A stretch of DNA of 64,000 bases, from contig JAPPBY010000013.1 of the NCBI GenBank assembly GCA_026702615.1, positions 27,521 to 91,520 of the forward strand, in the 5' to 3' direction. The first letter of the stretch is position 1. Each line of letters begins with the position of its first letter. Shown in pieces: positions 976-2,958 of this stretch. The DNA is from Chloroflexota bacterium. Lineage in GTDB: Bacteria > Chloroflexota > Dehalococcoidia > Tepidiformales > Tepidiformaceae. The position numbers and the translations under genes are program-made. The notes beneath the pieces were generated by a model. It saw only the letters and a program-made list of their open reading frames with translations, ran no database searches and was not told the DNA's origin.

Positions 976-1688
976 GCGACGGCGCCCCCTTCGAGGGCTT
1001 CCCCGGCATCGGCAAGGCCACCGCCATCCCCAACACCTTCTTCTCTGCGGTGCTGCCCGCCATGCGCGAACCCGGCGACCTGCTTGCCTTCCTCTGGGTG
1101 GCCCGCCTCGTCCAGGAGCAGCAGGGCGATGCCCGCTTTGTCACGGCCGAGCAGGTCTGGGCCTTGCCCGATGCCGCATCGACCTTCGAAGCGCTGTCGG
1201 CCGGCCGCGAGTCGCTCGAACGTGGGCTCGCCGCCTGCGTCGAGCTCGGCGCCCTGCTCGCGCTCGACCTCGCCGGCAGTGGCCAGCAGGAGACCGTCTA
1301 TTTCGTGAACAACCCCACCTCCCGCCGTGCCGTGGCCCGCGCCCGGGGCGGCGACCTCGAACTCCGCCCCGGCGCCATCGCCTACGAGCCCCAGCCCGCC
1401 CGACGCCCCAACATCTTCCACCTGTACGAGGAGCACGTCGGCACGATCACGCCGCTCGTCGCCGAACGCCTCCTCGTCGCCGCCGAGCAGTACCCGCAAC
1501 ACCTGGTCGAGTCCGCCTTCCGCGAAGCGGCCGAGCGGAACGTCCGCAACTGGAAGTACATCGAGCGCATGCTCCAAAACTGGTCCGAGGGGAACCAGCA
1601 CCATGAAGCGACTGGACAAAGCCTTGCTGACCGCCGCCGTCGATACGACCGCGACGGAGCCGCAGGATCCACCTCCCGCCCCCGCTGA
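972..1688 (+). CDS. DnaD-domain (DnaB_2-type) replication/primosome protein
   Basis: GTG start overlaps the dnaB stop (GTGA). The C-terminal segment NIFHLYEEHVGTITPLVAERL...LVESAFREAAERNVRNWKYIERMLQNW looks like the DnaD C-terminal domain. Confidence 0.65.
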   Translation: MSDGAPFEGFPGIGKATAIPNTFFSAVLPAMREPGDLLAFLWVARLVQEQQGDARFVTAEQVWALPDAASTFEALSAGRESLERGLAACVELGALLALDLAGSGQQETVYFVNNPTSRRAVARARGGDLELRPGAIAYEPQPARRPNIFHLYEEHVGTITPLVAERLLVAAEQYPQHLVESAFREAAERNVRNWKYIERMLQNWSEGNQHHEATGQSLADRRRRYDRDGAAGSTSRPR

Positions 1689-2958
1689 CGAGCCGGACGA
1701 AGACGCCTGTCCACTTTGCGACGGTGCCGGCTTCGTCCGCCGCGCGCGGGAGCTCGAGGATCCGCGCTTTGGTCGTGCGGAACCCTGTTCCTGCATCCTC
1801 GACGAGACCGGCGAGGTGCGCCGCTCCCGACTCGAGCGCATCAGCAACCTCGGCGCCCTCACCCGCTTCACCTTCGATGCCCTCCGGGGCGAAGCGGCCG
1901 CCGCTGTCGCCCAGGTCCGTGCTTACGCCGACGCGCCCGACGGCTGGCTCGTCCTGAAGGGGCCCAGCGGCTCCGGCAAAACCCACCTCGCCGCCGCCAT
2001 CGCCAACGAGCGCATCGCCCGCGGCGAGCCCGTTCTCTTCATGTTCACCCCCGATCTCCTCGACGGTCTGCGCGCCTCCTACGAGCCCGCCGAGGGCGAG
2101 CCCGGCTTCGACACGCTCTTCGAGCAGGTCCGCAGCGCCCCGCTCCTCATCCTCGACGACATCGACGCGGCCGCCTCCAGCGAGTGGGCCCGGGAGAAGC
2201 TCTTCCAGCTCGTGAACGCGCGCTACAACGCCGCTCTCCCCACCGTCTGCACCTGCCACTCCCTTACCGACGCCCTCGACGAACGCCTCTCGCGACGGCT
2301 CGCCTCCGGCGCCGTCCTCGACCTCGAAGGGGGCGCCCCCCTTGCGCGCTACCGCCAGGTCGGCGGCATGACCCGCGAGCGCCTCGAGGACTTCGGGTTC
2401 CACAACTTCCATAGCCGCTTCCCCAACTACGCCTCCCAGGAGAACGAGTCCCTCCAGACCGCCTGGGAGAGCGCCCACCGCTTCGCCGACGCCCCCGAGG
2501 GCTGGATGCTTATCCTCGGCGAGAGCGGCTGCGGCAAGACGCACCTTGCCGCGGCCGTCGCGAACGCCGTCCTGCGCAACGGCGGCGATGCCTTCTTTGC
2601 CGTCGTCCCCGACCTCCTCGACCACCTCCGCGCCTCCTTCGCCCCCAACCGCGGAGACCCGGGCTACGACGAGCTGTTCGAGAGCATCCGCAACGCCGGA
2701 CTCCTCGTTCTCGACGACCTAGGCCCTCACACCAGCTCGTCCTGGGCCGTCGAGAAGCTCTTCCAGATCGCGAACTACCGCGCCTCCTCGCGCCTCCCCA
2801 CCATCATCACCGCCGCCCTCTCCCTCGATGAGCTCCGCGAGGCCCACCCCCGCGTCGCCGTGCGCGCCCTGGACCCGAAGTTGAGCCAGCACGTCGCCAT
2901 CCTCGCCCGCCCCTACAACCTCCCGCCCCGCTATGGCGGAAACCGCCGCCGCCGCTAG
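1603..2958 (+). CDS. Tandem-duplicated DnaC/DnaI-like AAA+ helicase loader with an N-terminal Cys-rich zinc ribbon
   Basis: Two colinear modules, each with Walker A ([10 protein letters not shown] / [10 protein letters not shown]) and Walker B (LLILDDID / LLVLDDLG). CPLC...CSC lies near the N-terminus. ATG at 1603 chosen; it overlaps the upstream ORF by 86 nt, so the start is uncertain. Confidence 0.75.
   Translation: [451 protein letters not shown]

Follow-up and report, generated by a model that had tools for sequence, protein, structure and literature searches.

Loading of the replicative helicase by AAA+ proteins is understood from homo-oligomers, DnaC6 and DnaI6, in which the roles of the individual subunits can be separated only by means of mixed or engineered assemblies. 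In the Chloroflexi, a single domestication of a dna[CI] gene has been recorded, and a duplication was not mentioned (Brezellec et al. 2016, PMC5109545). Here we analyze a stretch of 64,000 nucleotides (the window; assembly GCA_026702615.1, contig JAPPBY010000013.1, positions 27,521 to 91,520 of the forward strand), the source organism of which is a Tepidiformaceae-type Dehalococcoidia bacterium of the phylum Chloroflexota. Near its beginning lies a gene for a helicase loader that carries two AAA+ modules behind one zinc ribbon in one and the same chain, and which current annotation names merely “ATP-binding protein” or “DnaC”. An initial sequence-only reading of this DNA had noted that known loaders are single-module proteins, in agreement with the solved structures that we found and with the literature; a search of the latter, in which the coverage of subscription journals was incomplete, did not reveal any tandem DnaC/DnaI loader, and the form is apparently undescribed.

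The two halves of the loader are repeats of each other. When residues 1-251 were compared with residues 252-451 by BLASTP, residues 68-227 aligned with residues 252-413 over 162 amino acids with 44% identity, 59% positives and an E value of 5e-38, which confirms the initial proposal of one polypeptide with two colinear AAA+ repeats behind a zinc ribbon. Whereas the repeat itself thus stood, the limits originally given for it (about residues 76 and 256) did not; as the self-alignment starts at residues 68 and 252, the duplicated unit begins earlier and must comprise the linker together with the AAA+ core, and not the ATPase core alone. A Pfam scan, which had been suggested as a check, returned IstB_IS21 twice in the loader, the families Bac_DnaA and AAA likewise each matched two stretches, and the same was true of the NCBIfam models PRK08116, DnaI, DnaC and IstB.

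An open reading frame (ORF) with two modules could perceivably also arise artificially, by an assembly duplication or by a sequencing error that joins two adjacent genes. However, the two DNA copies, which lie 558 nt apart in register, are only 71-79% identical in their best blocks and their products only 44% identical, so that an assembly duplication is excluded. The sequence-only reading had itself raised the possibility of a frameshift or an assembly duplication, or of homologues always encoded by two separate genes; instead, the ORF is uninterrupted and its homologues are single stop-free genes, also in many closed single-contig genomes. The divergence of the copies together with these stop-free homologues rules out an artefact, to which we assign a practically negligible probability.

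Within the genus, the one-chain form is stop-free in 24 of 24 other genomes, many of which are closed, being broken in two of them only by contig ends, and it is also found in most other families of the class. The survey of homologues that had been recommended along with the original claim likewise revealed the tandem duplication in many Chloroflexota genomes: in a sample of 301 evenly drawn genomes of the phylum, each at least 85% complete, at least 57 contain an end-to-end stop-free tandem match, and families f37 and f59 add further genomes, in which the two modules of the tandem form are matched one by one. Scanning of species-representative genomes detected more than 490 relatives, loci in named Chloroflexota metagenome-assembled genomes, the best 80 of which carry labels such as Tepidiformaceae, Dehalococcoidia, Thermoflexaceae and similar. 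The tandem form is also present in the closed genomes (1.4-1.9 Mb) of family f18, the nearest named relatives of which are Dehalococcoidaceae, Dehalococcoidales and Dehalogenimonas, at no more than 56% identity. Hence, the Chloroflexi dna[CI] lineage described in 2016 is mostly two-module, including the genomes nearest to Dehalococcoidaceae and Dehalogenimonas, and the one-ORF, two-module form is real, old and widespread in the Chloroflexota. Two loci in members of the class display other layouts, which may represent further rearrangements of the repeat: in one (G030:C1:313141-314436), a second match within the one open frame is to module A (residues 102-235) instead of module B, and in the other (G033:C6:13094-13768) only a piece of the zinc ribbon plus module B are matched.

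To gauge the age of the duplication, 102 modules were placed in a maximum-likelihood tree; 44 of these are A modules, 44 are B modules, and the remaining 14 come from one-module proteins. Thirty-seven A modules form one clade, with a support of 98 in the Shimodaira-Hasegawa-like approximate likelihood ratio test (SH-aLRT), and the corresponding B modules form a separate group (support 86); therefore, the duplication is older than the split of many families of Dehalococcoidia and of several other Chloroflexota lineages. One-module proteins from other classes branch near the base of the tree. In contrast to these, five one-module proteins of the Dehalococcoidia (families f19, f25, f27 and f30) nest inside the B clade with a support of 99, the sister group of one being the B modules of tandem proteins from its own family. 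In these five, the zinc ribbon is joined directly to a B-type linker (L-L-R-x-M-T-F-x-x-F-D), with one of them still keeping the A-type linker start Y-S-N-L. This joint, together with their position inside the B clade, identifies them as deletion derivatives that have lost module A. In family f19, the tandem form occurs in one genus and the reduced form in another. A topology placing all one-module proteins in a single clade was rejected (approximately unbiased test, p 0.014). Further tandem proteins (families f37, f59, f63, f74, f77 and f81) form a second group at the base of the tree and could stem from the same duplication or from a separate one.

By sequence search, both modules have their top matches in the Protein Data Bank (PDB) among solved DnaC and DnaI structures, namely E. 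coli DnaC (6QEL), Aquifex DnaC (3EC2/3ECC) and DnaI (2W58, 4M4W, 2QGZ and 5HE8), with E values of 1e-7 to 1e-13; for 6QEL, 3EC2, 2W58 and 4M4W they lie between 1e-10 and 1e-13. An AlphaFold2 model of the loader reached a mean predicted local distance difference test score (pLDDT) of 84 and a predicted template modelling score (pTM) of 0.55. Compared domain by domain in Foldseek, it matched 3EC2 with a template modelling (TM) score of 0.79, 2W58 with 0.76 and 6QEM_G with 0.63. Each modelled module has two helices between core strands 2 and 3 (residues 149-158 and 169-177 in module A, 335-346 and 357-363 in module B), and this two-helix insertion after strand 2, the initiator-specific motif (ISM), is a mark of the initiator/loader clade; after the last strand, neither module has the helical bundle of a lid domain. 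With Walker motifs, fold and the Box VII arginine finger all present, the loader is, as judged from sequence and predicted structure, a member of the DnaC/DnaI/IstB AAA+ clade. Among the NCBIfam models, the DnaI equivalog (NF006505) scores 113 bits, below its cut-off of 228, and the DnaC equivalog (NF005931) 99 bits, below 357. The uncharacterised DnaC-like family PRK08116, a one-module model of 269 positions, reaches 191.7 bits and passes its threshold of 189 only by summing the two module stretches. The protein is best described as a DnaI-like loading system, with a zinc domain and a DnaD-type neighbour, in which the ATPase has been duplicated.

Its genomic context bears on the question of whether it serves the chromosome at all. 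The best Pfam family name is IstB_IS21, and all cellular dna[CI] genes are regarded as domesticated phage genes by Brezellec et al. (PMC5109545), so that one could think of a mobile-element protein, either a transposition helper of the IS21 IstB type or a prophage DnaC-like protein, instead of a chromosomal loader. However, the NCBIfam IstB equivalog (NF038214) reaches 131 bits where its cut-off is 200, the adjoining genes are dnaB and one with a DnaD domain instead of an IstA transposase, and the loader gene is present in a single copy per genome, at a position that is kept across families and classes. Of 56 loci drawn from many families, most show the order dnaB, dnaD-like gene, loader gene, whether the loader is tandem or one-module, and in a few dnaB is directly adjacent to the loader gene. 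Signs of a mobile element, that is an adjacent IstA or phage module, multiple copies or a patchy presence at the strain level, were not seen. 

The loader also excludes DciA, the alternative whose mutual exclusivity with dna[CI] served Brezellec et al. 2016 to define loader replacement (PMC5109545). No DciA was found in the genome under study, which is 95% complete and in which the only IstB/DnaC-like matches are the two loader modules plus DnaA. In the phylum sample, a loader match is present in 199 of the 301 genomes and DciA in 88, with only four having both (G199, G223, G247 and G295); in these four, the loader is matched only weakly (E 1e-11 to 1e-13), probably through other AAA+ proteins. 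An origin from an IS21 IstB or a prophage is thus rejected on the grounds of context, copy number and score cut-offs, and we consider it very improbable; that the tandem protein is a chromosomal replicative-helicase loader is, in turn, well supported by its gene context. As a separate observation, about 18 of the 301 genomes have neither a DnaC-like loader nor DciA, and in family f39 (15 genomes of 2.0-2.7 Mb) the loader was detected in none and DciA, weakly, in one; such lineages may use another helicase-loading factor.

The conservation of the ATPase motifs is of particular interest, as the sequence-only reading had located Walker A and B motifs in both copies, where they were indeed found (Table 1), and had suggested that the two ATP sites might specialise. 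Motif statistics were collected from 131 tandem proteins, no two of which reach 80% identity, with residue equivalences taken from a HMMER alignment to E. coli DnaC and the roles of the DnaC motifs from Puri et al. 2021 (PMC8213410) (Table 2). The suggestion of specialised sites has partial support, in that the sensor-II-like motif is kept predominantly in module B; Walker A, Walker B and the arginine finger are intact in both modules. In DnaC, the sensor II Arg is R237, part of a [YF]-R motif that follows the last strand. In module A of the loader under study, Y250-R251 lies in a segment that aligns poorly; in module B the sensor-II-like position reads Y438-N439, and among 63 aligned homologues column 439 is occupied by Arg in 42 and by Asn, as here, in 12. 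Throughout the genus, the sensor I position is His in module A and Ala in module B, and the sensor-II-like position of module B is Asn. One-module Chloroflexota orthologues outside the Dehalococcoidia, on the other hand, mostly retain T-[TS]-N and D-[YF]-R at these sites. Judged by these alignments, both modules are under similar purifying selection. In our reading, ATP binding, contact with single-stranded DNA (ssDNA) and arginine fingers acting in trans would be needed in both of them, and constraint on the hydrolysis elements would have eased once the unit was duplicated, to a greater degree in A than in B.

Table 2. Functional positions of E. coli DnaC, their equivalents in modules A and B of the tandem loader, and their occurrence among tandem proteins
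Position	DnaC	Module A	Module B	Occurrence in A	Occurrence in B
Walker A Lys	K112	K126	K312	131/131	130/130
Walker B (occurrence: first Asp)	D169/E170	D185/D186	D371/D372	131	130
Equivalent of S177	S177	S193	S379		
ssDNA contact (occurrence: Trp)	Y179	W195	W381	130	131
Sensor I (occurrence: Asn)	N203	H219	A405	29/131	27/131
Arg-coupler	R216	R228	R417	127	103
Arg finger	R220	R232	R421	123/131	129/130
Sensor-II-like P-x-[YFW]-R				9/131	95/131
Mean pairwise identity				0.56	0.57

A rival explanation would be that module A has degenerated into a non-catalytic scaffold or regulatory pseudo-ATPase, leaving B as the only loader ATPase, so that the protein would behave as a usual one-module loader to which a domain has been added. 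This would be consistent with the distribution of the sensor-II-like motif, with the presence of a Gly two residues past Walker B in 126 of 131 B modules and in 86 of 131 A modules, and with the fact that what the natural revertants have lost is A, while the ribbon and a B-type module persist. However, module A retains the Walker A Lys in every protein, the two Walker B aspartates in 131 and 130 of 131, and nearly always the Trp and the arginine finger, which would be unexpected for a passive domain, and it matches B both in overall conservation and in the equal relaxation of sensor I. We therefore regard a pseudo-ATPase role of module A as quite unlikely.

The CPLC-x22-CSC element that the sequence-only reading had placed ahead of the first module is borne out as well. 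Its four cysteines are invariant in 63 of 63 aligned homologues, and in all sequences of two N-terminal alignments (41/41 and 71/71). The N-terminal domain was modelled by AlphaFold2 with a pLDDT of 82, with a two-strand ribbon at 81-95. The N-terminal 101 residues gave no DnaI_N match in Pfam at E values of up to 10, a profile of 41 N-terminal domains returned nothing significant among PDB sequences, full-length DnaI chains included, and the modelled domain had no significant match among PDB folds; only a weak resemblance of the ribbon to the DnaJ-like CxxCxGxG pattern was noted. With no significant match in the sequence, profile and fold searches, we regard the ribbon as analogous to the zinc domain of DnaI but not as a member of its family.

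Based on these findings, we propose that an anciently duplicated chromosomal loader of the DnaC/DnaI clade acts through a spiral built of three chains, a joint reading to which we give somewhat better than even credence. In this model, the single zinc ribbon would dock the chain on DnaB, both modules would bind ATP, and the modules would assemble head to tail, within as well as between chains, to form on the helicase a spiral like that of DnaC, in which A and B modules would alternate and which would keep the ring open and bind ssDNA. Three chains would most likely provide the six modules, which would amount to a DnaI trimer of dimers with covalently fixed pairs. Because sensor II is kept mainly in B, module B would be the better candidate for the hydrolysis site that releases the loader, and module A more likely an ATP-dependent assembly module. 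In AAA+ assemblies, an ATP site is completed by the arginine finger of the adjacent module; the retention of both fingers thus argues for head-to-tail assembly within and between chains, as a lone A-B pair would leave one finger without a partner and free to drift, and yet both have been retained.

Three chains per DnaB hexamer are plausible by analogy with two described systems. On its helicase, DnaI forms a trimer of dimers, and within each dimer the two subunits touch the helicase in different ways (Liu et al. 2013, PMC3791466); a DnaB6:DciA3 complex, with three loaders per hexamer, has also been reported (PMC13696075). Furthermore, each module has its own copy of the linker. The linker of DnaI docks onto its ATPase, where it keeps early self-assembly in check (Hood and Berger 2016, PMC4887207).

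The stoichiometry could, alternatively, be six tandem chains per DnaB hexamer, with one ribbon per helicase subunit and twelve modules arranged in two tiers or in a longer spiral, or else with one of the modules engaging the DnaD-like protein, DnaA or DNA. In the canonical DnaB6:DnaC6 complex (PDB 6qel), every DnaB subunit is paired with a helicase-binding domain of its own, six DnaI have been described on a single helicase hexamer (PMC3791466), and the two-ring AAA+ proteins p97, NVL and Rix7 are among the Foldseek matches of the whole model. These latter matches are poor, however (TM 0.26-0.30, root-mean-square deviation 13-20 A), and reflect the presence of two AAA+ folds per chain and not a shared arrangement. 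In addition, both modules keep the helical insertion of initiators and loaders as well as the ssDNA-contact residues of a single spiral, and the three DciA per hexamer mentioned above also count against six chains, an arrangement that we hold to be unlikely.

Several points weigh against the three-chain model as well. First, the AlphaFold2 model leaves the relative position of the two modules unfixed (pTM 0.55 versus a mean pLDDT of 84). Second, with one ribbon per two modules, three of the six loader-binding sites of DnaB would be left empty in a 3:6 complex. Third, the very existence of one-module revertants means that the fusion is not essential for loading, and suggests that six one-module chains are able to fulfil the same task. 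Finally, the sensor I Asn, which is required for the ATPase activity of DnaC (PMC8213410), is absent from both modules of the loader under study and occurs in about 22% of either module across the family; hydrolysis may thus be weak or proceed via other residues.

It is conceivable that the three-chain spiral is in fact an obligate asymmetric loader, in which three chains would occupy alternate sites of DnaB6 through their three ribbons, the intramolecular A-B interface would be constitutive, and only the intermolecular interfaces would be gated by the helicase and ssDNA, with A serving ATP-dependent assembly and B hydrolysis-driven release. We put this forward tentatively, as a proposal that is rather less likely to be true than not to be. 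If it were true, the pairs of tandem and revertant loaders in the Dehalococcoidia would show how many helicase contacts and how many active ATP sites a bacterial loader needs. In any case, a natural covalent dimer makes the modules separately mutable, so that intra- and inter-chain interfaces as well as sites A and B can be addressed singly; the tandem form also halves the number of helicase-binding domains, and the natural one-module revertants can serve as controls.

The features of the locus are collected in Table 1. The start of the loader gene is an ATG preceded by GAGGGG 10 nt upstream; a GTG at 1327 opens a longer frame over the gene, but the N-terminus M-K-R-L is the consensus start among close homologues, which favours the ATG. 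The DnaD-domain gene overlaps the dnaB stop with its start, and the loader gene with its 3' end, the latter by 86 nt (1603-1688) in a different frame. In a distant closed Dehalococcoidia genome (G060), whose loader is only about 41% identical, the two genes overlap by 77 nt (L143:3988-4064). A long overlap retained over such distances suggests either coupled translation or a constraint on the N-terminal helix of the loader. Linker B and its surroundings were modelled as a strand (residues 250-253) and two helices (258-262 and 278-296). The loader ends in a short basic tail, which follows the consensus R-R-x-R in relatives and has basic counterparts in one-module orthologues; it could be an element that contacts DNA or DnaB.

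Table 1. Features of the tandem loader locus, in window coordinates, and the one-module derivatives found in other genomes
Feature	Position	Strand	Remarks
Tandem helicase-loader coding sequence	1603-2958	+	intact ORF, no stops, 451 aa plus stop
Cys4 zinc ribbon, CPxCxGAG-x-CxC (C36, C39, C62, C64)	1708..1794	+	residues 36-64; presumed helicase-binding N-terminal domain
Linker A, residues 68-100, helix plus L-T-R-F-T-F-D element	1804..1902	+	belongs to duplicated unit; AlphaFold2 helix 70-86
AAA+ module A core, residues 101-240	1903..2322	+	alignment to E. coli DnaC 6qel_G
Module A Walker A GPSGSGKT, residues 120-127	1960-1983	+	
Module A Walker B LLILDD, residues 181-186	2143-2160	+	
Module A Arg finger R232	2296-2298	+	Arg-coupler equivalent R228; sensor I position His219
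Inter-module segment plus linker B, residues 241-286	2323..2460	+	contains linker-element copy F-G-F-H-N-F-H
AAA+ module B core, residues 287-433	2461..2901	+	alignments to Aquifex DnaC 3ec2 and E. coli DnaC 6qel_G
Module B Walker A GESGCGKT, residues 306-313	2518-2541	+	
Module B Walker B LLVLDD, residues 367-372	2701-2718	+	
Module B Arg finger R421	2863-2865	+	also R417; sensor I position Ala405
C-terminal tail	2902..2955	+	sensor-II-like A-P-x-Y-R position (here Y438-N439), basic end N-R-R-R-R; pLDDT about 50
dnaB 3' part, RecA-like C-terminal domain	1..975	+	runs off window start; Pfam DnaB_C PF03796, E 1.5e-97
DnaD-domain (DnaB_2) gene, probable co-loader	972..1688	+	PF07261 E 8.9e-9; TIGR01446 DnaD_dom E 2.8e-10
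One-module derivatives L045-L049	genomes G267, G283, G243, G307, G117		

Taken together, the tandem loader can be placed among known systems as follows. With the type II AAA+ proteins p97/Cdc48, NVL and Rix7 it has in common two AAA+ folds per chain, but the likeness ends with the domain count, as these proteins belong to another AAA+ clade, possess lid domains and form stacked hexameric rings. IstB of IS21 (5BQ5, 8Q3W) is of the same AAA+ clade and lends the loader its top Pfam name; the loader, however, has neither an IstA partner nor a mobile-element context. The DnaC proteins of E. coli (6QEL/6QEM) and Aquifex aeolicus (3EC2/3ECC) are the best sequence matches for both modules, which share with DnaC the four-residue spacing of Arg-coupler and Arg finger (R228/R232 and R417/R421 versus R216/R220), a Trp at the position of the ssDNA-contacting Y179 and a Thr or Ser at that of S177, whereas E. 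coli DnaC has a single module, a zinc-free helical N-terminal domain that binds DnaB, and a 6:6 complex.

DnaI of Bacillus, Geobacillus and Staphylococcus (2W58, 4M4W, 5HE8), which works with the co-loaders DnaD and DnaB(Bsu), belongs to the same AAA+ clade, with a Walker B of the DD type and a fold match of TM 0.76, and it resembles the tandem loader in having a zinc-binding N-terminal domain and then a linker ahead of the ATPase, as well as a DnaD-domain protein alongside, here in the form of gene adjacency. The tandem protein differs from it in that each chain combines two AAA+ modules with a single N-terminal domain, a Cys4 CPxCxGxG...CxC ribbon with no detectable similarity to DnaI-N in sequence or fold, and in that sensor I has mostly lost its Asn. 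A further related group is formed by the one-module Chloroflexota loaders (260-320 aa), which represent the dna[CI] domestication that Brezellec et al. 2016 recorded for the Chloroflexi: they share the ribbon and the linker, are likewise encoded behind dnaB and the dnaD-like gene, and are about 45-50% identical to module A or B. In contrast to the tandem form, they have a single module, in which sensor I (T-[TS]-N) and sensor II (D-[YF]-R) are both canonical, and while some of them are of the ancestral type, the five from Dehalococcoidia were derived from the tandem form by the loss of module A.

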